DNA of 64,000 bases from an uncultured Candidatus Saccharibacteria bacterium (GTDB taxonomy: Bacteria; Patescibacteriota; Minisyncoccia; Minisyncoccales; JANBVM01): positions 254,365-318,364 of the forward strand of contig CAYVDD010000001.1 in NCBI GenBank assembly GCA_964450805.1, in the 5' to 3' direction. Each line of letters opens with the position of its first letter. Within the stretch, counting starts at the first letter, position 1. The translations under genes were made by a program, and so were the position numbers. Positions 4,027-28,437 of this stretch are shown in pieces. The notes below the pieces were generated by a model. The model saw only the letters and a list, made by a program, of their open reading frames with translations. It did not search any database and had not been told where the DNA came from.

Positions 4027-4812
4027 TTACAAACCAAAAGTTTTTTGCCAATGATTATTGCCTTCTTGTTTAACTAATCTCTCGCGCTTACAATGTTCAC
4101 ATTCCTCACCAGCATTAGGAACTACATCAGAATCAAGGCATTTTTTAATATCTAAAATAGCAGAATCAATCCATGAATCGTTTCCATTATAAGGTAAGAT
4201 TGAAGCTTTAAACTCTAATTTTCCATCAAATTTAGGATTATTTTTACTGGCATTAACAAATAAGAAATATCCTGTGTTTAAAACATTAAAACCCATTTGC
4301 CTGAATATCCATTGATAAACCTCCATCTGCTTCTTATAACCCTGCTTATACTCATCATCTAAAGAAATCTCTCTGCTCGTGCTTGTTGCCTTATAATCAA
4401 CAATATATAACTCTTTGGTTTTTTGATTAATCCAGACATCATCAACAATACCGCAAATCTCTAACTTGCTTTTTTCATGAAGCACACAAGCTCCAACATA
4501 CTTATAATAATCATCTCTCCAGATTGGTAAATCTTTATGTTTAAAGGGTACAGCATCTATACCATACTCTGTCATTAATACATGAGATTCTCCATTTTTT
4601 CTTAACAAATCAAATTCTTTTTTAAGCAAATGATCAACAGCACTATTTAATGCCCAGCCAGGCATACTTGGTCTTCCCAACCCCATTCTTCTGTCTAAAT
4701 AAAAACAGCGAGGACATTCTAAAAAAAGATCTATCTTTGAACGACTTATTCTGAAAGGCTCTTTTAAATCGGGACTATATATATTTTTTTGTCTTTTTTT
4801 ATATTTATTCAT
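4027..4812 (-). CDS. PD-(D/E)XK nuclease, Cas4/RecB(AddB)-nuclease-domain-like, with a 4-Cys cluster signature
   Basis: Motif II 'GIVDDVW', motif III 'IVDYKAT', Q-motif 'QMEVYQW', an N-terminal 'CPRC' and a C-terminal 'CEHC'. Confidence 0.6.
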   Translation of the reverse strand: MNKYKKRQKNIYSPDLKEPFRISRSKIDLFLECPRCFYLDRRMGLGRPSMPGWALNSAVDHLLKKEFDLLRKNGESHVLMTEYGIDAVPFKHKDLPIWRDDYYKYVGACVLHEKSKLEICGIVDDVWINQKTKELYIVDYKATSTSREISLDDEYKQGYKKQMEVYQWIFRQMGFNVLNTGYFLFVNASKNNPKFDGKLEFKASILPYNGNDSWIDSAILDIKKCLDSDVVPNAGEECEHCKRERLVKQEGNNHWQKTFGL

Positions 4813-5562: not shown

Positions 5563-6552
5563 CTATAAATTTGGTTCTTTATCTAAATCTAGTTCTATAT
5601 CTCCAATCCTCAGCCTTTTTTTACTAACCCAAACAAAACCCTTCTCTGGACTTATAACAGCGACATCAACAGGTCCACCTACTCCGGGTATATCTCCTGG
5701 GCTAGCTTTAATACCGTCTGAAAATCGTTGAATCGCTGAGGTAGTTTGAATCATCAACACACAAAAATCAATTGCATCTTGAAGAGTCATTGTTCCCCAT
5801 TGAATATGATATTCTAAATTTCTAAGTTGCCTGTTTATTTCTTCCTTGTTGTTATTCTGAATTGCATCTTGAACAAATTTAATATTACTAATCCTGCCAT
5901 CCCAACCTAACACAATCCTTGAAACAACATCTATTTGCCCCGTCCAAGAAGCTCCATATTCTTTGCCTTTTTCTCGACTATCTCTCAGTTTTTGAATCTC
6001 ACCAGGAACACGACAGCTGTAAACTTCATGTGAACTATCTTTATTATAACCAGCCACCAGAAAACTAATTGGATCAACTTTAGCTGCACCATTTTTTATA
6101 TTACCTTGAGGGTCTTTAAAGCGAAATTTTAGGAGATATTGTTCTTTTTTAACCTCTATAACTTCACAGCCCTGTCTTTGAAGATCATTTTTGATTTTAT
6201 TTGGTAATTTTTCCAATTGCTCTTCCCACTTATATTTTTTATTAAACAAATAATGTATTTTTTCAGCAACATCTCTTACATTTAATTCTTCTATTCTTTC
6301 ACTCTGCTCAAGTTTGAACTGATCAATAAATTTACTAATACTTTTCATTATTCCATCTTCTGGTAAAAATGCTAAACCAGTCACTGCTACACCAACTCTT
6401 TTATTTAATTGAAAAAGCTTAGAAGCATTATCACTTCCAATGCGCGCCATTCCTTTTTTATTACGATAACTTTGCCTACTATCAGCTGCCAGAACCAAAC
6501 CAGCTGGTGTTGTAGAATTTATGACTAATGACATAATAGTTATTCTTATCAC
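5563..6552 (-). CDS. Ntn-hydrolase of proteasome beta-subunit/HslV type with a large internal insertion
   Basis: N-terminal 'STTPAGLVLAADSRQS...KLFQL...GVAVTGLA' resembles the proteasome beta Thr1 region 'TT(I/V)xG..D.VvlAaD.R.t'. C-terminal 'PGVGGPVDVAVISPEKG' resembles the last proteasome strands. The ~130 aa between them has no match. Confidence 0.4.
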   Translation of the reverse strand: MIRITIMSLVINSTTPAGLVLAADSRQSYRNKKGMARIGSDNASKLFQLNKRVGVAVTGLAFLPEDGIMKSISKFIDQFKLEQSERIEELNVRDVAEKIHYLFNKKYKWEEQLEKLPNKIKNDLQRQGCEVIEVKKEQYLLKFRFKDPQGNIKNGAAKVDPISFLVAGYNKDSSHEVYSCRVPGEIQKLRDSREKGKEYGASWTGQIDVVSRIVLGWDGRISNIKFVQDAIQNNNKEEINRQLRNLEYHIQWGTMTLQDAIDFCVLMIQTTSAIQRFSDGIKASPGDIPGVGGPVDVAVISPEKGFVWVSKKRLRIGDIELDLDKEPNL

Positions 6553-6787: not shown

Positions 6788-6843
6788 GTTGCTATATTTT
6801 TAATTTTTAATATTAATGCCGACCTTTTAAAAGTTTTCCACAG

Positions 6844-6881
6844 TTGACACTGTTTTATGTTCGGTAAATGTTCGGTATAAT
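6844..6881 (+). promoter_or_regulatory. Divergent promoter/operator region: tandem direct repeat ATGTTCGGTAA/ATGTTCGGTAT overlapping a TATAAT -10 element
   Basis: TTGACA at 6844-6849. Repeats at 6857-6866 and 6868-6877. TATAAT at 6876-6881, about 35 nt upstream of the LexA-MTase ATG. Confidence 0.35.
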
Positions 6882-6916
6882 ACATTAATAATATCAACCA
6901 TAAAAAATCACGTCAA

Positions 6917-8392
6917 ATGTTAACAAAAAGACAAAAACAAATTCTTGATTACATTCAAAAATTTATAGAAAAAAAGGGCTATTCCCCATCTTTTGAAAAA
7001 GTGGCGAAGCACTTTAAATTAGTCAAATCTACTATTCATCAACATATTGAAACTTTAAAAAGTAAGGGGTACTTAAAAAATCAACCAAGAATTATAGAGA
7101 TATCTAAAAATAAAAAATTTCAAGAATTGGTACAGATTCCAATATTAGGAACTATCGCTGCTGGACAACCAATAGAAATAATAAGAGACAAAGAATTTAT
7201 TAAAGTGGCTAAATCTAGACTATCTTCGTCTGGTGAACATTATGCTCTTAAAGTTCAAGGAGATAGCATGATAGATGAAGGAATTCACGATTCTGATGTT
7301 GTAATAATTAAAAAACAATCTTATGCAGAAGATGGAGAAACAATAGTTGCTTTGACTAACTATGACGAAGTTACTTTAAAAAAAATCTATAAAGAAAAAG
7401 ATGGATTTCGTTTACAACCAGCTAACCCAAAGCTAAAACCAATTTTTGTAAAAGAATTAATTATTCAAGGCAAAGTTATTAGCGTAATTAAAAATTACAA
7501 AGAACTAAAAGAAAAAATAAAGGCTAAATTAAAAGTTAAAATTAGAACAAGCAAAACGCCAAAAAAAAATATAAAAAAACATCTAAATAAAGTATTTCTT
7601 GGAGATATTATGAATCTTCTAAAAGAGCTACCCAATGAAAGTGTAGATATGGTTTTTGGAGATCCTGATTATAATGTTGGTATAAAATACAGAGATAAAA
7701 GTTATACAAGAAACTTCAACGAATATATTGAATGGTATATTGATTTAATAAAAGAATCTATGAGAGTTTTAAGAAAAGATGGAAATTTATTCACAATGAA
7801 TTATCCCAAACAAAATGCACATTTAAGAGTGAAATATTTAGACAACACATATCCTTTAATTCATGAATATGTATGGACTTACAATACAAATGTAGGTCAT
7901 TCTTCAAAACGTTTCACTACTGGACATAGAAACATCTTACATGTCAGAAAAAGTAAAAATAATAAATTTTACAAAAATAATGTAGCATTACCTTATAAGA
8001 ATCCGACGGATAGAAGAATTTTAAAAAATTTAAGAAATGGATCAAAGGGTAGAATGCCTTATTCTTGGTTCTATTTCAATCTTGTTAAAAATGTTAGTAA
8101 AGAAAAAACTTGTCATGCTTGTCAAATACCTCAAAAACTTACGGAAATGTTAATAAAATCTTGCACAATGCCAAACGACATGGTTTTAATTCTTTTTGGT
8201 GGAAGTGGAGCTGAATTAGAAGTATGCAAGAGAACAAAAAGACAATATATTTCTGCTGAAATAGATGAAAAATATTACGAAATGATTAAAGATAGATTAA
8301 AAAATGGTTGTATTAAAAAAGAATACAAGCTAAAACTTAGAAATCCTATAAAACCTAAGGAAAGCTTGTCGCTTTTTAGTAAAGAGGTATAA
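6917..8392 (+). CDS. Fusion protein: full-length LexA repressor (wHTH plus S24 autopeptidase) fused to a beta-class N6-adenine/N4-cytosine DNA methyltransferase (PF01555-like)
   Basis: LexA part: N-terminal HTH, cleavage-site-like 'IAAGQP', catalytic 'QGDSM' and 'TLKKI' (Ser/Lys dyad). A Lys-rich linker follows. MTase part: 'VDMVFGDPDYN' (motif IV, DPPY-type) precedes 'HACQIPQKL...LILFGGSGA' (motif I FxGxG), which is the beta-class order. Confidence 0.75.
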   Translation: MLTKRQKQILDYIQKFIEKKGYSPSFEKVAKHFKLVKSTIHQHIETLKSKGYLKNQPRIIEISKNKKFQELVQIPILGTIAAGQPIEIIRDKEFIKVAKSRLSSSGEHYALKVQGDSMIDEGIHDSDVVIIKKQSYAEDGETIVALTNYDEVTLKKIYKEKDGFRLQPANPKLKPIFVKELIIQGKVISVIKNYKELKEKIKAKLKVKIRTSKTPKKNIKKHLNKVFLGDIMNLLKELPNESVDMVFGDPDYNVGIKYRDKSYTRNFNEYIEWYIDLIKESMRVLRKDGNLFTMNYPKQNAHLRVKYLDNTYPLIHEYVWTYNTNVGHSSKRFTTGHRNILHVRKSKNNKFYKNNVALPYKNPTDRRILKNLRNGSKGRMPYSWFYFNLVKNVSKEKTCHACQIPQKLTEMLIKSCTMPNDMVLILFGGSGAELEVCKRTKRQYISAEIDEKYYEMIKDRLKNGCIKKEYKLKLRNPIKPKESLSLFSKEV

Positions 8393-9008
8393 TTTTTTTA
8401 ACTTCCTTATAATTAAAATCTTCTCTTTCTAGTAAAACAAGAGCCGCAAAAAATTTAGCTCTTCCAGCTCCACCACTAGTTGGTTTGTCATTTTTGTTTC
8501 TTAAAACATATCTAACTGGAGAATTAACATCTTTCCAACTAAACTTATAATTAAAATCTTCTTGTATCCATATCCATTTTAACATCAACAAGTAAAGCTT
8601 AGAATCAATTCCAGGCAATCTTGGTAAGTTCTTTGGTGTGGTATTATTTTTATAAACTTTCTCTATCGCTTTCCAAAACTTTTTACTCTTTTTTTTATTT
8701 TCTTGAAAATCGTTCATCATTTCTGCAAAAGTGAATTTACTTGTATTAAGCTCTTTGCCTTTTTTATATGGTACAACTTCAAAATCGTACAGGTTGGTCC
8801 ATAAAGCAGAATTGCTTCTAACTATCTTTAAATTTCTCTTTTTAATTTTTTTACCTGGATAACGAAGCCCAACTATAGGGTTCTTTTTTGTTCCTTCCAC
8901 AATAAATAGGATTGAGCCTGCAGCTTTTTCTCGATAAGGAGCTAATGCTTGGGCTACTTCTTGATAAATTCTTTTTGGATTTTTAATTTTTAATTCTATA
9001 ATTTTCAT
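8376..9008 (-). CDS. Hypothetical protein (210 aa), translationally coupled to the femAB-like gene
   Basis: ATGA start/stop overlap with the upstream femAB-like gene. It is convergent with the MTase, overlapping it by 17 nt. No firm motif; a D/E-x-K-like segment 'YDFEVVPYKK' is present. Confidence 0.35.
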   Translation of the reverse strand: MKIIELKIKNPKRIYQEVAQALAPYREKAAGSILFIVEGTKKNPIVGLRYPGKKIKKRNLKIVRSNSALWTNLYDFEVVPYKKGKELNTSKFTFAEMMNDFQENKKKSKKFWKAIEKVYKNNTTPKNLPRLPGIDSKLYLLMLKWIWIQEDFNYKFSWKDVNSPVRYVLRNKNDKPTSGGAGRAKFFAALVLLEREDFNYKEVKKIIPLY

Positions 9009-15917: not shown

Positions 15918-17852
15918 TCATTTAGTAAAATACCAGTTTAAAATCTCATAAACAGCAGGTAATGTTGCTACTCTCACTCCTTTAACGTCTTCAATCAGAA
16001 TAGTGATTATTATTTCAGGATCATCATAAGGAGCAAAAACAGTGATCCAGTTATGATACACATCTTTTTTTGAAGTTTCAGCTGTTCCTGTTTTGGCAGC
16101 AACTTTGACTGGTAGAGAATTAAGGAACACTGCTGAAGCGTTGGGACTATTGTAGCCAGTAACAGCTTGTCTCATACCCTGTCTTACAACTTCAATATTA
16201 TCAGTACTTAAAAAATCTTGCTTAATAATTTCAGGGTTTATTTCCTTTACTATCTCCCCTGTTTCACTATCTAAGATTTCCTTAACAATCTGAGGTTTAA
16301 AAATCTTTCCGTAATTAGCAATTGGCATAAAACTAACTGCAACTTCTATTGGAGTAATCTGAAGATATCCCTGGCCAATTGAAAAATGATAAGTGTCTCC
16401 ATCCCACCAGCCCTGACCTAAAACTCTCTTTTTCCAAACTTTATCAGGAACAAAACCAGCTATTTCTCCAGGCAAATCAATGCCAGTTTTATTTTCCCAG
16501 CCAAACATACTTAAATATTCTTTAATCTTTGTCGGACCTAATCCATCTTGAGTCTTGTAACCACCGCCTAAACGATAAAAATAAACATTACATGATTCAG
16601 CTAAAGCTTTTCTCATATCTGTCAAGCCATGAGCTCTTAAATCTTTATACTGCCAGATAACTTCAGGGTCCCAGTAATCTTCAACCTCAAGCATGCCAGT
16701 GCAGTTAATAAATTCGTCAGGATTAATTATTTCCTCTTCTAATCCTGCTAAAGCAATTAAAGGTTTAATTGTTGAACCAGTTACGTAACGGCCAGAAATA
16801 GCACGATTGAATAAAGGTTTGTTTGGATTGTCAAAAATCCTCTCAATAAGTTTTGAATCTGAATTTGAAAAAACATTATTGTCAAAAGAAGGAAAAGAAA
16901 CCAAAGAAAGCACTCCTCCTGTTTTAGGATCCAGAGCAACAACCGCTCCTTTTTTACTTCCAATCTCGTAAAGTTTCCTCTCTAATACATCCTTAACTTT
17001 TTTTTGAAGTTCAGAATCAAGCCAGAGAACCAGATTATTACCTGATTGTGGTAAAGATGCTGTTTCCTGAGACAATATATTGCCCATTGCATCTCTTTCA
17101 ACCATTACTTTGCCCAGGTTTTTCCTTAAAAAGTCCTCATAATATTTTTCTAAACCATCTCTTCCAATATAATCTAAAATTGAATAAAACTCAGGAGAAC
17201 TTTCAAACTCATCTTTCCTAATCTTGCCCATATATCCGATTATATGAGCAAAAATTTCCCCGTCTACATAATCTCTTGTTGATGTTTTTCTTATCTTAAA
17301 ACCAGTTAAATCATTGATCTTAGTTTGTAAAATAATCAATTTCTCACGCTCTAGATCTCTGGAAACAAAAACCAAAGAGTCTGTACTGGACGCAATTTCC
17401 TGTTTTAATTGCTCATAATCCTTTTCCAGAATACGGGCAACTTCTTTTAAAACCTTATTCTCATCTTCTTTAGAGTAATCAAGATTTTTCTTTTCATAAA
17501 TTAAATCAAATTGAGGAATATTAAAAACCAATTGCTTTAAATTCCTGTCATAAATCACTCCTCTATCTGCTTCAATACTTTTAATAATAAACTTATTCTC
17601 ATTGGCTAGAGCTTTAAAACTCTCTCCTTCAAGAACCTGAAGCTGAAATGTTTTTAAAAACAAAATTATCATTGTTAAAAACAAAACAAATAAAAATCCT
17701 TTTAGAGTTTTATCTAGAAGAGGAATATTTACTTTTTTAATTGAAATCCCCCATTCCTCTTCTTTTTCTTTGGCAAGTTTGTCTAATATAATTTCATGAG
17801 GCTCAATATCTCTTTTCTGTTTAAATCTCTTTAGGCTAAACCTGCCAAACAT
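15918..17852 (-). CDS. mrdA: Penicillin-binding protein 2 (transpeptidase), elongasome type
   Basis: 'STIKP' (SxxK), SxN and 'KTGTA' motifs. It lies immediately downstream of mreC-mreD. Confidence 0.75.
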   Translation of the reverse strand: MFGRFSLKRFKQKRDIEPHEIILDKLAKEKEEEWGISIKKVNIPLLDKTLKGFLFVLFLTMIILFLKTFQLQVLEGESFKALANENKFIIKSIEADRGVIYDRNLKQLVFNIPQFDLIYEKKNLDYSKEDENKVLKEVARILEKDYEQLKQEIASSTDSLVFVSRDLEREKLIILQTKINDLTGFKIRKTSTRDYVDGEIFAHIIGYMGKIRKDEFESSPEFYSILDYIGRDGLEKYYEDFLRKNLGKVMVERDAMGNILSQETASLPQSGNNLVLWLDSELQKKVKDVLERKLYEIGSKKGAVVALDPKTGGVLSLVSFPSFDNNVFSNSDSKLIERIFDNPNKPLFNRAISGRYVTGSTIKPLIALAGLEEEIINPDEFINCTGMLEVEDYWDPEVIWQYKDLRAHGLTDMRKALAESCNVYFYRLGGGYKTQDGLGPTKIKEYLSMFGWENKTGIDLPGEIAGFVPDKVWKKRVLGQGWWDGDTYHFSIGQGYLQITPIEVAVSFMPIANYGKIFKPQIVKEILDSETGEIVKEINPEIIKQDFLSTDNIEVVRQGMRQAVTGYNSPNASAVFLNSLPVKVAAKTGTAETSKKDVYHNWITVFAPYDDPEIIITILIEDVKGVRVATLPAVYEILNWYFTK

Positions 17853-19049: not shown

Positions 19050-19165
19050 TAGCGGCGGCTACCTACTTTCGCAGGAAACCCACTATCATCGGCCTTGATA
19101 TATTTCACTTCTGTGTTCGAGATGGGAACAGGTGGAGCAATACCAGTATAGCCGCCACTAAAACG
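19050..19165 (-). rRNA. rrf: 5S ribosomal RNA
   Basis: The reverse complement contains 'CCACCTGTTCCCATCTCGAACACAGAAGTGAAA' (5S helix III/loop C). The terminal helix is gcggcggc/gccgccgc. Confidence 0.8.
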
Positions 19166-19207
19166 CCTTTTTGTATAATTTAAAACTAATTGCTTCGTAA
19201 AATTTTA

Positions 19208-22170
<2,963 letters not shown>

Positions 22171-22385
22171 CAAAAATTTTACGAAACTAAAATAACTAAG
22201 ATGAATAATTTTTTAGCTAGATATTTTTTCCTTATTCAATTTTAGAGTTCTTTCTTACTCTTTCTAAACTTAAAAAACCGCCACAGAGCGGTTTTATCAA
22301 CACAAAGACACTTGTGCTTTTTTAACCGCTTCTTATTCTTATTAATTGTCTGTCTGATTTATAAAGCTTTCCCATACCCAGATTA

Positions 22386-22413
22386 ATTTTAGCAGAGTAA
22401 AAGTTGTTGTCAA
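22386..22413 (-). promoter_or_regulatory. Sigma70-like promoter for the 23S-5S unit (TTGACA-N16-TAAAAT)
   Basis: Minus-strand TTGACA (plus 22408-22413) and TAAAAT (plus 22386-22391), about 215 nt upstream of the 23S 5' end. Confidence 0.45.
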
Positions 22414-22474
22414 GAAAAACAAACATCCCAGATTCAAAAACAAACCTGAGATGCTTTTATATACTCAGAGAATT

Positions 22475-23158
22475 CTACTTTTCAGAGATTTTTTCTTTTA
22501 TATCAAGAATAAATTTAGCAGCAGCATCCTTACCACCTAAACCAAAAGCTAAGCCAAAAGATAAAGTAATCATTCCTACAAAGCCTTTAATCAAAGTATC
22601 GATAATAGTCGGAGTTACTCCTAATTGAAATAAAATTGCTAGGGCTGCAAAAATATAGATTGCCCATCTAATTGTCATTCCCAAAAACCCAGCGTAACCT
22701 ACTCCCATTTTTTTAACGCTGGCTTTCATAATCTTTTCCAAAATATCTGTTATAATAACAGTTACAACAAAAATAGCTGAAGCAACAATTAAATTAGGAA
22801 GCCAAGTAACAACTCTTTTTAAGAAATCAGCAAAATGAACAAATCCTAAAATTTCAACAGAAGCCAGTAAAAAGACAATGACTAAAATCCATTTAATAAT
22901 AGCCCCAATAAATTCAGATGGGTTTACTTTTAGTTCTGCTTTTTGCAAAGCTTCCTTCCAACCCACTCTTTCAAAGATTCTATTAAATCTTAGCTGTTTT
23001 AAAATTTCAGCTATTAACTTTCCTAAGCCAACTGCTAAAAACCAACCAATGATCAGAACAACAATCGCTCCAATTAATCTTGGTAAGAACATCAGGAATC
23101 CTTTCCAAGCGCTTTGTAAAGCCTCAAGTGTTATAATAGACCAGTCTTGTACTACCAT
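22475..23158 (-). CDS. Membrane protein with repeated conserved TM helices (MscS N-terminal-like / TM_helix repeat)
   Basis: Six hydrophobic helices with an amphipathic repeat pattern. No catalytic motif. Confidence 0.45.
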   Translation of the reverse strand: MVVQDWSIITLEALQSAWKGFLMFLPRLIGAIVVLIIGWFLAVGLGKLIAEILKQLRFNRIFERVGWKEALQKAELKVNPSEFIGAIIKWILVIVFLLASVEILGFVHFADFLKRVVTWLPNLIVASAIFVVTVIITDILEKIMKASVKKMGVGYAGFLGMTIRWAIYIFAALAILFQLGVTPTIIDTLIKGFVGMITLSFGLAFGLGGKDAAAKFILDIKEKISEK

Positions 23159-23287
23159 AGATAAGAAGTTTTTATTAATTAGACTACCGACCTTTTAAAA
23201 AGATATTGGTATATTATAGCATTATGTCAAAAAAGCTCCTGTGGAAAACTTTTTAGCTGATTTTTCATAAAAAAATATCAATTTTTA

Positions 23288-23315
23288 TTGACTTAAAACA
23301 TAAAAATTCTACAAT
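23288..23315 (+). promoter_or_regulatory. Sigma70-like promoter for the plus-strand CYTH gene (TTGACT-N16-TACAAT)
   Basis: TTGACT at 23288-23293 and TACAAT at 23310-23315, 20 nt upstream of the ATG. Confidence 0.4.
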
Positions 23316-23335
23316 AAAATCATTAAGTAATAATC

Positions 23336-23908
23336 ATGAAAAACATTGAGATAGAAATACAAGTTAATGTTGAAAACAGCAAACCACTCTTGGATTTTCT
23401 AAAAAATAATGCTCAATTTAAATCAGAAAAACAACAAACTGATGAATATTTTTCTCCAATTCATCGCAGTTTTGTTAAGGTCAGACCTGTGAAAGAATGG
23501 TTAAGATTAAGGAATTCAAAAGGTAGTTATTCAATAAACTACAAAAATTGGCACTATGATGAAAATAAAAAAAGCACTTATTGTGATGAATATGAAACTA
23601 AAATAGAAAACCTGGATAAGATTAAAAAAATCCTCAATATTCTTAATTTTAAACCACTTATTACAGTTAATAAGTTAAGAAAAACCTGGGTTTATAATAA
23701 CTATGAAATTAATATAGATTCAGTTAAAGATCTTGGTGATTTTGTAGAGATTGAATATATTGGAAAAGAACAAGTTGAACCAGTTAAAATTACAGAACAA
23801 ATGATAAATTTTCTGAAAAATATAGGCTGTGGAAAAATAAAAAGGAATTACCTGGGATATCCTTTCCAGCTTTTATTCCCAGATGAAATAAAATACGAAG
23901 AATTATAA
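23336..23908 (+). CDS. CYTH-domain protein (triphosphate tunnel metalloenzyme: CyaB / ThTPase / PPPase family)
   Basis: N-terminal 'IEIEIQV' (ExExK-like), 'LRLR' (RxR) and C-terminal 'LGDFVEIEYIG' acidic strand motif. Confidence 0.65.
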   Translation: MKNIEIEIQVNVENSKPLLDFLKNNAQFKSEKQQTDEYFSPIHRSFVKVRPVKEWLRLRNSKGSYSINYKNWHYDENKKSTYCDEYETKIENLDKIKKILNILNFKPLITVNKLRKTWVYNNYEINIDSVKDLGDFVEIEYIGKEQVEPVKITEQMINFLKNIGCGKIKRNYLGYPFQLLFPDEIKYEEL

Positions 23909-23974
23909 TTTTTAATAGGACAAAACAAAAAGATAAGACATAACTGTCCTATCTTTTAACTTCAGCTTTATTTC

Positions 23975-24361
23975 TTACAATCTTTTAACTAATTGCTCTG
24001 GAGATTGGATGATTTCTCTGAACAACACATTTCTGCAAACCTCATCATTATCAGCAGATAATGCATAAATTGGCTTGCCCATTGCAGCTGCGCATCCAAT
24101 TTCTAAAGTTGTACTGTTTCCAGAATAACCATTTTTATTATAAATAAAAACAACATCAGCCATTTTAATTTTGTAAAAATGATCATGAGTCAGCCCTAAA
24201 GCAGTAAAGTTCTTGTAATCGTCAGAAAGATTATTCCATTCATCCTGTCCAGAATGAAGATAAGGCTCATAAACAACAACACCTAAATCTTTCAGTTTTT
24301 TAGCAAATTCCCTTATTTCTGGTTTAAAACGGCGACTGCCGCAAATTACTACTGATTTCAT
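23975..24361 (-). CDS. Nucleoside 2-deoxyribosyltransferase-like (NDT/DNPH1-like Rossmannoid) small protein
   Basis: 'VVICGS', 'VVVYEP' and 'GYSGNSTTLEIGCAAAMGKPIYAL' resemble the NDT family 'sGTafEiGyAxAlGKPv'. Confidence 0.5.
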   Translation of the reverse strand: MKSVVICGSRRFKPEIREFAKKLKDLGVVVYEPYLHSGQDEWNNLSDDYKNFTALGLTHDHFYKIKMADVVFIYNKNGYSGNSTTLEIGCAAAMGKPIYALSADNDEVCRNVLFREIIQSPEQLVKRL

Positions 24362-24468
24362 ATTTTAATAGTATACTATGTCTTATTTAATAAATTAAGT
24401 GGACTTCGTAAGATTTAGTTGGAACCAGATCATACAGTAATTACTGGTTTGGGAGAAATTGAAACACA

Positions 24469-25014
24469 CTAGCTTTTATTAATAATATTCTGCATCATAT
24501 CTCCATATTTCTCATTAGTAATTTCAGCTTCTGGAGATATTTGCTCTAATAATTTTACACAATCTTCTCTAGCTTTATCTATTTTCTCTCTTGAACTTAC
24601 CACCTTCTCAATCTCTATAAAATCGCCTAATTGTTCTACCTGGTCTATTGCGATTTCAAAATCATTGTATTTATAAGCGTCTCTTGTTTTAGAAATAACG
24701 AATGCTTCGTTAAAGTCTAATTTCTCTAATAGCTCTATACCAAAATCTACATTATCTAGCTTAGCTTTTATTTCAAATCCCCCACCCTGCCTTACAATTT
24801 CTTTAAATTCCAAATTACAACTATCATTTATTTCTCTTATTCTTACAACCAACCCTCCTTTAATAATCTTATTTTCTTTATCTAAAAATTTAGGATGTCC
24901 GAAAATTCTATCTATTTGTTTTACATTTTTAATAAATTGAATCCCCATTTTATTCAAAGATTCTTTTATAGAACCGACATCCTTAATTTTTGCTCTTATT
25001 TCTACTTCAATCAT
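24469..25014 (-). CDS. CYTH-domain protein (second paralog)
   Basis: 'IEVEIRAKI' (ExExR/K), 'VVRIRE' and C-terminal 'LGDFIEIEKV'. Confidence 0.7.
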   Translation of the reverse strand: MIEVEIRAKIKDVGSIKESLNKMGIQFIKNVKQIDRIFGHPKFLDKENKIIKGGLVVRIREINDSCNLEFKEIVRQGGGFEIKAKLDNVDFGIELLEKLDFNEAFVISKTRDAYKYNDFEIAIDQVEQLGDFIEIEKVVSSREKIDKAREDCVKLLEQISPEAEITNEKYGDMMQNIINKS

Positions 25015-25071
25015 ATGCTTTATTTTATAAAAAATTTGTTCTTATGGTAATAATGTATATATGCTAATCTG

Positions 25072-25145
25072 TGGACCTGAGCGGACTCGAACCGCTGACC
25101 TCCACTATGCAAAAGTGGCGTTCTAGCCAACTGAACTACAGGCCC
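25072..25145 (-). tRNA. tRNA-Ala (anticodon TGC)
   Basis: Reverse complement GGGCCTGTAGTTCAGTTGGCTAGAACGCCACTTTTGCATAGTGGAGGTCAGCGGTTCGAGTCCGCTCAGGTCCA. The cloverleaf is consistent, with a G3:U70 pair. No encoded CCA. Confidence 0.85.
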
Positions 25146-25152
25146 TTATTAG

Positions 25153-25224
25153 TGGGCGCGGAAGGAGTCGAACCTTCCACCTCTTTTTTATCAGAAAAGC
25201 GTTCTACCGCTGAACTACGCGCCC
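25153..25224 (-). tRNA. tRNA-Ile (anticodon GAT)
   Basis: Reverse complement GGGCGCGTAGTTCAGCGGTAGAACGCTTTTCTGATAAAAAAGAGGTGGAAGGTTCGACTCCTTCCGCGCCCA. Anticodon loop CTGATAA. Confidence 0.85.
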
Positions 25225-25790
25225 AAAACCTCTAAAACAAATAACTTTTTTTTAACAGGATCAAATTTATAAGAAACATCTTTATCGAAAATCAAATTCA
25301 GGTTTAAAGTCTTAAAAATCTCCAGCCATTCTTCTTCTGTTTTAAAAACAGTCTTATTCTTATTACCAAAAAGCTTATCAAATGAAAAGCTGTGAATCTG
25401 GCAAGCTAATTTTGATAAAAATCCTTCAGGTAAATCTTCATAAATAAAGATTTTACCTCTTGAAACCCTTATTACTTCCTTTAAAAGGGCAACAAAGTCT
25501 TTGCTGTGATGCAATGTATAAGCTATTAAAATATTGTCAAAACTATTTTCAGGGAAAGGAAGCTTTTTTCCGTTAATCAAGCTGAATGCTATGGGAAATA
25601 TTCTTCGGTCAACAACATCCACACCAATAACCTCTGTTTCAAAAAAATTCTGAAAAGTATTAGCTATTATTGCAGAACCGCAACCAATATCAAGAATTCT
25701 GGATTTTTTAATAATAAATTGTTCACAGTCCAAACACATTTTATGGGCTACCTGTTCGTAAATTTTTTTAAAAACACGATAAAAGTTCAT
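25215..25790 (-). CDS. Class I SAM-dependent methyltransferase; its 3' end overlaps the tRNA-Ile 5' end
   Basis: Motif I 'ILDIGCGSA', an acidic residue after beta-2 ('IGVDVVD') and motif-IV-like 'LIAYTLHH'. The stop codon lies 7 nt inside the tRNA-Ile acceptor stem. Confidence 0.6.
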   Translation of the reverse strand: MNFYRVFKKIYEQVAHKMCLDCEQFIIKKSRILDIGCGSAIIANTFQNFFETEVIGVDVVDRRIFPIAFSLINGKKLPFPENSFDNILIAYTLHHSKDFVALLKEVIRVSRGKIFIYEDLPEGFLSKLACQIHSFSFDKLFGNKNKTVFKTEEEWLEIFKTLNLNLIFDKDVSYKFDPVKKKLFVLEVLGA

Positions 25791-25932
25791 AAATTATTTT
25801 CGCAAATTAATCATTCTTTTAGAACTGATTATAAGTAAATTTTAGATTAAATTTTACATCTTGACAAGAGAGCTATTTAATATATAAATAAATCAGTTCT
25901 TGAATGTAAAAGCAAAAAAAGAGGTTTTTTGA

Positions 25933-26508
25933 TTGGATTTAAATATAATCATATTTGATATAGAATGCACAACGTGGAAAGGAGCAAAATATAGAAATTG
26001 GTCTGGGGCAGGTGAACATCGAGAGGTTGTTCAGATCGCTGCTGTATTAATAGAAACAAAAGAATTCACAGAATTATCTGTTTTTCAATCTATAGTAAAA
26101 CCGAAAATAAACCCTGTTGTATCTGATTTTTTTATTAATCTTACAAATATTACTCAAGAAAGAGTAAATAAGGGTGTTAAATTCACGACGATGCTACAGA
26201 AATTTCATCAATGGTGCAAAGACTATCAAATCTATTCGTTTGATAGCCGAACAAACACTTCACAACTTTTTGACAGAGATGTCTTAAAAGAAAATTGTTC
26301 TCTCTTGAAAGTAGAATTTCCATTCGAAAATAATAGATTTCATAATATTAATAAAGTTTTTCTCGATAATGGGTTTAGGCTCCGACAAAGCGGAGCCACT
26401 CCAGAAGCATTTGGCATTAAAATTCCTGCTAGACCACATAACGCGTTGAATGATGTTCGAGGCTTAATAATTGGTCTCAAAGAGTTAAAGCGTCTTGGAA
26501 AAATATAA
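25933..26508 (+). CDS. DEDDh-family 3'-5' exonuclease (DnaQ/RNase T/Orn-like)
   Basis: Exo I 'IIFDIECTT', Exo II region and Exo III 'HNALNDV'. It has a TTG start, with GAGG 10 nt upstream. Confidence 0.7.
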   Translation: MDLNIIIFDIECTTWKGAKYRNWSGAGEHREVVQIAAVLIETKEFTELSVFQSIVKPKINPVVSDFFINLTNITQERVNKGVKFTTMLQKFHQWCKDYQIYSFDSRTNTSQLFDRDVLKENCSLLKVEFPFENNRFHNINKVFLDNGFRLRQSGATPEAFGIKIPARPHNALNDVRGLIIGLKELKRLGKI

Positions 26509-26552
26509 TAGATTTTGTCTGTAGTAAATACAGATTTTTTTTTTATTTTAAA

Positions 26553-26585
26553 CCCAAAACACGCCCGAATAGGCGTGTTTTTAGT
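26553..26585. terminator. Bidirectional rho-independent terminator between the exonuclease gene (+) and the 16S 3' flank (-)
   Basis: Hairpin aacacgccc-gaat-aggcgtgtt with T-runs on both sides. Confidence 0.5.
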
Positions 26586-26696
26586 TTTAGTTTCTTAGAG
26601 TTATCCCGACTAGTCGATCTTTTAGAAACTTCGACCAACTTCTCAAAAGTTAAAATCCAAATTTCAGATTTCAACTCTTATCAACCAATTTTAAAA

Positions 26697-28232
<1,536 letters not shown>

Positions 28233-28437
28233 TAAAAAATAGTCGGGATAACTCTAAAAAACTAATTATATTAATTATCAGGTCCTTACTATTAAGTTTT
28301 AATGTTCTTTCCTTTAAAGTAAAAAATCAGGAAGAGACATCCTGATCATTTCCGAAATCTTTAATTAATGATTCGCTTATTTACATCTTTTCTTTTTTTT
28401 CTTAGTCATTTCTTTATTTATTAGTCTCTTCAATTTT

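Follow-up and report, generated by a model that had tools for sequence, protein, structure and literature searches.

The window analyzed here is a stretch of 64,000 nucleotides from the genome assembly of an uncultured Candidatus Saccharibacteria bacterium (GCA_964450805.1, contig CAYVDD010000001.1, positions 254,365 to 318,364). Our analysis centered on a plus-strand gene that encodes a 491 amino acid protein in which a complete LexA repressor is fused to a DNA methyltransferase (MTase), within a single uninterrupted open reading frame (ORF) running from ATG to TAA. This gene is preceded by a putative LexA operator and is faced by a convergent gene encoding a 210 amino acid protein (Table 1). 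No second LexA and no second MTase were found in the window.

Table 1. Features of the LexA-MTase locus, in coordinates of the window.
Feature	Position	Strand	Basis
GTTTTCCACA, copy of the 10-mer GTTATCCACA with one mismatch; the 10-mer contains the DnaA-box consensus TTATCCACA	6833..6842	+	Comparison across loci
TTGACA, -35-like hexamer	6844..6849	+	Read from sequence; (G)TTGAC kept in sister promoters
Putative LexA operator, direct repeat ATGTTCGGTA-A-ATGTTCGGTA, 11-bp period, contains GTTC-N7-GTTC	6857..6877	+	Repeat search
TATAAT, -10 hexamer, overlaps the 3' end of the operator	6876..6881	+	Read from sequence; operator-(T)ATAAT junction kept in sister promoters
Divergent/antisense promoter-like site TTGACG-17-TATTAT, TG-extended, overlaps the 5' untranslated region	6888..6916	-	Consensus scan
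LexA-MTase fusion gene, 491 aa	6917..8392	+	ORF reading, Pfam, NCBIfam, family alignment
LexA DNA-binding domain, a winged helix-turn-helix (wHTH), aa 2-57; recognition helix STIHQHIE	6920..7087	+	PF01726 LexA_DNA_bind, 51.6 bits
Peptidase S24 domain, aa 75-188; Ser117 (7265-7267), Lys155 (7379-7381)	7139..7480	+	PF00717, 95.6 bits
Ala82-Gly83, predicted autocleavage bond	7160..7165	+	Invariant in 24 aligned members; aligns to E. coli Ala84-Gly85
Lys-rich linker, aa 194-216	7496..7564	+	Predicted local distance difference test (pLDDT) <50; alignment columns without conservation
Beta-class DNA amino-methyltransferase domain, aa 221-474; motif IV DPDY 7661-7672, motif I FGGSG 8195-8209	7577..8338	+	PF01555, 115 bits
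C-terminal L-S-L-F, aa 484-487, similar to beta-clamp-binding motif	8366..8377	+	Read from sequence and alignment
Convergent 210-aa partner gene, putative restriction enzyme of an uncharacterized family (cl2)	8376..9008	-	Neighbor conservation

An initial annotation, made from the sequence alone, had described a complete LexA in the first ~200 residues, followed by a Lys-rich linker and an MTase of the PF01555 type, and a Pfam search of the protein had been set as a test beforehand. In that search all three domains (LexA_DNA_bind, Peptidase_S24, and N6_N4_Mtase, the latter at aa 243-458) exceeded their gathering scores, which for PF01555 is 26.7 bits. The NCBIfam LexA equivalog TIGR00498 matched aa 2-194 with 168.7 bits (cutoff 110.95), and the LexA half aligned end to end with the structures of the LexA proteins of Thermotoga maritima (3K2Z) and Escherichia coli (1JHH). 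In the HMMER alignment to the E. coli structures, the segment IAAG|QP corresponds to Ala84-Gly85, GDSM to Ser119, and TLKK to Lys156, bearing out the cleavage site and the Ser/Lys dyad that had been proposed. The protein therefore resembles LexA in its full-length match, cleavage site, catalytic dyad, and operator at its own promoter, and differs from it by the addition of a C-terminal MTase of ~290 aa after a disordered linker. In the AlphaFold2 (AF2) model the wHTH (pLDDT 80-91), the S24 domain, and the MTase core are confident and are joined by this disordered Lys-rich segment.

The MTase domain carries DPDY at aa 249-252 upstream of FGGSG at aa 427-431, that is, motif IV before motif I, the order of beta-class enzymes and the one given in the initial annotation. 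Its closest solved relative is M.MboIIA (1g60; E = 1.6e-21), NCBIfam models indicate a weak similarity of this half to CcrM and YhdJ, and the PADLOC model MTase_II PDLC03337 matches it with 426 bits (E = 8.6e-129). With M.MboIIA, M.RsrI, CcrM, and YhdJ it shares the PF01555 fold and the order of the motifs, but it is only ~25-30% identical to them, reads DPDY in motif IV, and has GATC as its inferred target (see below), as opposed to GAAGA, GAATTC, GANTC, and ATGCAT, respectively. In a scan of GTDB species, MTases of 272-317 aa that stand alone and share 69-77% identity with the MTase half were found in a very wide range of bacterial and archaeal metagenome-assembled genomes (MAGs), and an MTase of Thermus phage phiLo is 70% identical (locus L081, phiLo 15985-17606). 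Among phages only phiLo matched closely, and plasmids yielded no characterized MTase homolog above 31% identity.

An alignment of 24 members of the fusion family showed that A82, G83, G115, S117, M118, K155, D249-P-D-Y252, and F427-G-G-S-G431 are all invariant, and that the linker differs among members in length and in sequence. With regard to the C-terminus, fusions like that of the window end in L-[SP]-L-F, and most of the stand-alone MTase homologs (L031-L080) carry a C-terminal Q-L-[TSAP]-[LF]-[LF]-E; both are similar to the bacterial beta-clamp motif QL[SD]LF, a motif that is also present in archaeal bins. This clamp-like motif hints at replication-coupled methylation. It should be noted that the conservation of LSLF may have another cause, because its codons overlap the 3' end of the convergent gene at this locus and at other loci with a partner of the cl2 type.

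The exact protein was already on record, on a 636,475-bp contig, and searches of NCBI, JGI, ENA, and Logan assemblies identified at least 120 further clusters at 90% identity (60-85% identical, 442-537 aa) that are full length and have the same three domains. The initial annotation had suggested searching genomes of the candidate phyla radiation (CPR) for the same fusion, and in our scan of one genome per GTDB species the full fusion was recovered at 31 loci. The named carriers are MAGs of CPR/Patescibacteria, namely Nealson-, Wolfe-, Magasanik-, Kerfeld-, Giovannoni-, Harrison-, Woese-, and Staskawicz-bacteria, and Paceibacterota; the bin labels of some few of the 31 loci are implausible. The clusters identified in the assembly searches, too, all come from MAGs of the CPR/Patescibacteria type. 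Disruption of the gene was apparent only in L030 and L062 among the loci examined. No compositional island was detected at the fusion, as the gene has a GC content of 0.26-0.28 and its neighbors range from 0.24 to 0.34.

Such a protein might also arise from a frameshift, a mis-assembly, or a mis-called ORF joining separate lexA and MTase genes. The linker is A-rich and of low complexity (AAAAAAAAA, positions 7563-7571), a type of tract prone to sequencing indels, and nothing else was found that speaks for an artefact. Because the continuous full-length architecture is shared by at least 120 independent clusters from four sources, with linkers that differ in sequence and length, and the 31 fusion loci come from different MAGs, we rejected this explanation and consider its probability negligible.

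Databases label these proteins merely as "transcriptional repressor LexA". Full-text searching of the literature returned no account of LexA-MTase fusions (a paper on the Patescibacteria SOS response, Sanchez-Osuna, Barbe and Erill 2017, Environ Microbiol 19:3465, lay outside its coverage), and the word LexA is absent from a 2025 review of the biology of restriction-modification (R-M) systems. The fusion design is apparently undescribed so far, as the initial annotation had supposed.

To determine how far the LexA half is associated with MTases, we performed an exhaustive HMMER search with this half alone and examined the best 150 cluster representatives at 50% identity. Forty-five of these are at least 330 aa long, including nearly all of the top-ranked matches. 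According to Pfam and motif analysis, the long representatives contain LexA_DNA_bind and Peptidase_S24 followed by one of several types of MTase: N6_N4_Mtase (beta-class, of several sizes), gamma-class N6_Mtase/Eco57I with or without TaqI_C, alpha-class MethyltransfD12, or a domain with C5-MTase motifs. The Ala-Gly site, the GxSM motif, and the Lys motif are all kept in 42 of the 45. Different MTases occur even in proteins that are both assigned to "Candidatus Nealsonbacteria" (P0241, 562 aa, and P0242, 615 aa). The LexA halves nearest to that of the window belong to a gamma-class fusion (0.70) and to SPPY-type fusions (0.68 and 0.67), and those of L101 (SPPY) and L144 (DPPY, with a TaqI restriction enzyme) share 0.80. 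Because LexA halves that are close to each other often differ in the class of MTase attached, the pattern is, as judged from these comparisons, one of a stable LexA-plus-promoter module behind which MTase/restriction enzyme cassettes of different classes have been repeatedly exchanged. Thus, the unusual chimera noticed in the initial annotation is indeed a fusion, but not a one-off: it belongs to a large CPR-wide family with beta, gamma, alpha, and C5 MTases.

Analysis of the region upstream of the fusion gene identified the direct repeat listed in Table 1, which occurs once in the window, where none would be expected. A direct repeat with the same 11-bp period was called automatically upstream of 30 of the 31 related fusion genes and was recognized by eye in the remaining one (L029), so that, counting the window, an operator that overlaps the -10 hexamer is present at the fusion promoter in all 32 loci examined. 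Between lineages, the sequence of the repeat covaries with the central residue of the wHTH recognition helix: S-T-(I/V)-H-Q-H pairs with (G/T/C)TTCGGT, A-H-(F/Y)-H with TTTCTAT, H-E-H with TCGGG, H-Y-H with TTTCGAT, and H-K-H with TTTCGCT. No other computational evidence for binding of these repeats by the wHTH is as strong as this covariation, and it is on this basis that we infer binding. The -35 element of the minus-strand promoter-like site that overlaps the 5' untranslated region is the reverse complement of a GTCAA(G) motif (GTCAAG/CTTGAC) that many related loci likewise carry shortly before the ATG.

We also scanned public metagenomes for the exact pattern ATGTTCGGT-NN-ATGTTCGGT. In the 120 stretches returned, 30 sites precede LexA-type ORFs. 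In other CPR contigs, the identical box is located directly upstream of dinB, which encodes a Y-family polymerase (L102, Berkelbacteria-like), of recA (L193 and L164), and of a stand-alone lexA of 198 aa (L188), and close variants are present at three more CPR dinB promoters (L202, L203, and L205). As a test for an SOS box in the same genome, DinB homologs were checked for one encoded on the window's own contig, and none was found. The box of the fusion protein looks like a general CPR SOS box, which agrees with a report, cited in PMC7739468, that the LexA of Patescibacteria binds a direct repeat. The GTTC-N7-GTTC contained in the operator is also the direct-repeat form of the LexA box reported for Alphaproteobacteria (PMC8565304).

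A second element of these promoters is the 10-mer GTTATCCACA. The 353 kb of fusion loci contain 24 exact copies, and 23 of these are no more than 100 bp upstream of the fusion ATG; the 606 kb of loci with stand-alone MTases contain none. It is present at nearly all of the 30 LexA-fusion promoters found by the operator scan, and at the four CPR dinB genes mentioned above the TGTGGATAAC form of this DnaA-box-like element abuts the SOS box. Because the orientation and distance of the element vary, these data suggest a separate factor, possibly DnaA, that would co-regulate CPR SOS promoters through the 10-mer. The possibility that it is a genome-wide promoter element was considered and discarded, as it is not enriched in the window (17 one-mismatch matches versus 17.8 expected). 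In addition, tandem head-to-tail arrays of an 11-bp unit (ATGTTCGGTAG / ATGTTCGGTGA), containing many SOS-box half-sites, were observed in L141 (about 4098-4183), L166, L186, and L136, with no LexA gene nearby.

Taking into account how the operators are distributed, the LexA module could be a mere dimeric autorepressor of the MTase (M) gene, a substitute for a C protein or for the helix-turn-helix (HTH) of SsoII-type enzymes, lacking RecA-stimulated cleavage and any link to DNA damage. There is precedent in the "regulatory methyltransferases" M.SsoII, M.Ecl18kI, and M.EcoRII, in which an N-terminal HTH fused to the MTase of an R-M system binds an operator at the M promoter and represses its own gene (PMC12707154; PMC6100179). 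Consistent with such a role, each lineage's operator is confined almost entirely to its own fusion promoter in the ~414 kb examined, in all the DNA available for these genomes the operator was seen solely at the fusion's own promoter, and operator and recognition helix drift together between lineages as they would for a regulator with a single target. However, the invariance of the Ala-Gly, Ser, and Lys residues in 24 members, and their retention in 42 of 45 divergent clusters, are hard to explain without selection for cleavage, and the operator of the window has the same sequence as the box that precedes dinB, recA, and lexA in other CPR contigs. We therefore consider a purely regulatory module quite unlikely.

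The gene downstream of the fusion points to an R-M context. In the window, the 3' ends of the two genes overlap by 17 bp (8376-8392), and the ATG of the partner gene overlaps the stop codon of a FemAB-like gene (ATGA); here the partner gene is part of a cell-wall operon. A 3' overlap of exactly 17 bp is also found in several relatives (L001, L003, L004, and L005); transcripts of the M gene and its partner must therefore run into each other, and antisense or transcriptional interference is possible. The partner is directly downstream and convergent in ~20 of the 31 fusion loci. Its 405 homologs are all annotated as "hypothetical" and have no Pfam domain; the protein matched no known nuclease family, and its AF2 model (pLDDT 82.5) had no significant fold match in the PDB. 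A protein of the PD-(D/E)XK nuclease superfamily (PF12705; also DUF3799) is encoded ~2 kb upstream of the fusion gene (4027-4812, minus strand), and its presence near the fusion is not a conserved feature of other loci.

Clustering of neighboring genes showed that this MTase nearly always adjoins a member of one of four partner families. The 210-aa protein of the window belongs to cl2, whose genes are convergent; cl1 is homologous to cl2 and is encoded upstream of stand-alone MTases in the same direction; cl3 proteins are ~290 aa long and convergently encoded; and cl4 proteins contain DUF6996 and DUF6997 and are also the MTase neighbor in phage phiLo. Families cl1 and cl2 have common invariant residues (E38, Y50-P51, D75-F76, K144-W145, E150-D151, Y154, and G182-R183). 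Several loci also have, ahead of the partner gene, a small XRE-HTH gene resembling those of C proteins. With cl1/cl2, cl3, and cl4, this MTase has at least three unrelated, uncharacterized partner families, which are candidates for new GATC restriction enzymes. At sister loci with other LexA-MTase fusions, the first gene downstream was convergent in all 17 inspected and abutted or overlapped the 3' end of the fusion gene in 16, and 4 of the 10 sister partners tested are restriction enzymes recognized by Pfam (MvaI/BcnI in two cases, TaqI, and Bsp6I).

The specificity of the module was approached through the avoidance of its possible target. In loci with this MTase, GATC is depleted more strongly than any other 4-, 5-, or 6-mer: its observed/expected (O/E) ratio is 0.20 for the stand-alone loci (z = -49.7), 0.35 for the fusion loci, and 0.47 for the window. 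Among the 71 loci with at least 10 expected sites, 61 have a ratio below 0.5, and several have no GATC at all where 46-67 sites would be expected. From this pattern, it is likely that the MTase belongs to a GATC-specific R-M module.

A different interpretation gives precedence to LexA: the protein would be the SOS master repressor of the cell, the MTase an orphan epigenetic or cell-cycle enzyme similar to Dam or CcrM that is carried along, and the 210-aa neighbor no restriction enzyme. The equivalog-level LexA score and an operator equal to the box that precedes dinB, recA, and lexA elsewhere are in line with this, as are the DnaA-box-like promoter element, which hints at replication coupling, the possible clamp-binding motif at the C-terminus, the weak NCBIfam similarity to CcrM and YhdJ, and a neighbor that has no nuclease signature and resides here in a cell-wall operon. 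Orphan MTases such as Dam cause no avoidance of their targets. The strong avoidance of GATC in loci with this MTase thus argues against an orphan enzyme, as do its pairing, typical of R-M, with C-protein genes and with a partner from any of four families that replace one another, and the presence of Pfam-recognized restriction enzymes in the same convergent position at sister LexA-MTase genes. We consider an orphan MTase on a master repressor unlikely. The initial annotation had mentioned, as an alternative, an R-M MTase controlled by a LexA-type N-terminal domain, and this is the option favored by the conservation of the partner, the avoidance of GATC, and the restriction enzymes of sister loci.

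Based on these results, we favor, with a probability of roughly 0.6, the reading that the fusion protein is the M subunit of a chromosomal Type II R-M module, probably GATC-specific, with a complete and probably functional LexA at its N-terminus, that the 210-aa gene is its presumed restriction partner, and that the M gene is autorepressed and can be derepressed by activated RecA (RecA*). Several observations weigh against this. Motif IV reads D-P-D-Y, not the canonical (D/N/S)PP(Y/F/W); it is invariant in fusion and stand-alone members, and in our alignments it is best described as a conserved variant of motif IV, and the target base may be N6-adenine or N4-cytosine. TTGACA and TATAAT are not a canonical pair, because the 26 nt between them is too far, and the promoter would have a non-canonical geometry in this lineage. 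Neither the window nor the flanking DNA of related loci yielded a second operator, so that control of a regulon beyond autoregulation is, for this genome, a hypothesis. As for the target, CPR loci with other MTase types also have GATC ratios of 0.5-0.8, so that the measure discriminates poorly inside CPR, and the method is weak there because control loci with a TaqI partner show only mild depletion of TCGA (O/E 0.69).

In the Type II R-M module that we favor, the LexA part would dimerize through its S24 domain and the wHTH would bind ATGTTCGGTA-A-ATGTTCGGTA over the -10 hexamer, so that the MTase would repress its own synthesis. Upon DNA damage, filaments of RecA on single-stranded DNA would stimulate self-cleavage at Ala82-Gly83, as suggested by the invariant catalytic residues. 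The initial annotation had proposed that the MTase could be released in this way, which is contradicted by the position of the bond: because it follows the wHTH and precedes the S24 domain, autocleavage would separate off the DNA-binding domain alone, and S24, linker, and MTase would stay together in one fragment. Loss of the wHTH would derepress the promoter, and more protein would be made. The extra MTase would become available just when repair and recombination create unmethylated sites, and could shield the chromosome from its own restriction enzyme; this step, the weakest of the mechanism, would be functionally a Type II analog of damage-induced restriction alleviation. The fusion protein probably doubles as the SOS repressor of its genome, and probably also represses other SOS genes, because its operator equals the box found at dinB, recA, and lexA elsewhere in CPR.

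A broader proposal, possible but on the doubtful side, is that in much of CPR/Patescibacteria the sole LexA is fused to the MTase of whichever Type II R-M cassette occupies the lexA locus, and serves as both SOS repressor and writer of the self-mark. The 3' end of lexA would then be an in-frame landing pad for cassettes, damage would, by way of RecA*-induced cleavage, raise repair and methylation together in a Type II circuit of restriction alleviation, and DnaA would also read the promoter and so couple the supply of MTase to replication.

As for the surroundings of the locus, the window has an extreme strand bias: the minus strand encodes the rRNAs, all six tRNAs, and 51 of the 57 ORFs with a length of 120 aa or more, and the LexA-MTase gene is among the few on the plus strand. 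Divergent from it is a gene (5563-6552, minus strand) for a 329-aa protein whose N-terminal part (aa 17-61) weakly matches the proteasome subunit family (PF00227, 23.7 bits); this gene adjoins small unannotated ORFs. The rRNA operon (19050-28235, minus strand) has unusually long, ORF-bearing spacers: ~2.9 kb between the 23S gene (19208-22169) and tRNA-Ala (25072), with ORFs at 22475-25014, and ~1.5 kb between tRNA-Ile (25224) and the 16S gene (26695-28235), with ORFs at 25215-26508.

In R-M systems, methylation has to stay ahead of restriction. This is known to be achieved by C proteins, by autorepressors of the HTH-MTase kind, by antisense RNAs, and, in Type I systems, by proteolytic restriction alleviation after DNA damage. 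The LexA-MTase family resembles the SsoII-type regulatory MTases (M.SsoII, M.Ecl18kI, M.EcoRII, and M.MspI) in having an N-terminal DNA-binding domain on the MTase and an operator at the M promoter. SsoII-type enzymes are C5-MTases that have a short HTH region and lack a protease domain, and their restriction (R) genes are usually divergent with overlapping promoters, whereas the LexA-MTase family has a full LexA with an S24 autoprotease, four MTase classes, a convergent R gene, and an operator that equals the SOS box of the lineage. Membership in the SsoII/Ecl18kI group was therefore rejected, since the regulatory module is LexA and the core is PF01555 rather than C5; the likeness is limited to the way of working. 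With C proteins (C.PvuII, C.AhdI, and C.Esp1396I) the family has in common the transcriptional control of the timing of R-M genes, and C-like genes are located upstream of R in several sister loci. A C protein is a small activator/repressor in its own right, acting on the C-R promoter, whereas the window has no C gene and the LexA module would act on the M promoter and would add a damage-sensing input. Finally, in Type I systems restriction alleviation after damage answers the same problem, as unmodified sites arise and self-restriction must be prevented (PMC12707154; PMC11109961); the known route is degradation of HsdR by ClpXP, whereas here we propose a LexA-gated increase of a Type II MTase.

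If this reading is correct, a full LexA on an MTase would be a new solution to that problem, a self-cleaving, damage-sensing repressor within the M subunit, and would give a Type II system a direct SOS input. The family is large, with hundreds of relatives of this design, at least 45 clusters at 50% identity, four MTase classes, and modular swapping of cassettes, and it exposes at least three uncharacterized candidate families of restriction enzymes paired with a highly conserved, probably GATC-specific MTase that is found in Bacteria, Archaea, and a Thermus phage. The marking of the genome as self would be tied to the SOS response, which would change the view of the SOS regulator in the huge uncultivated radiation that CPR represents.

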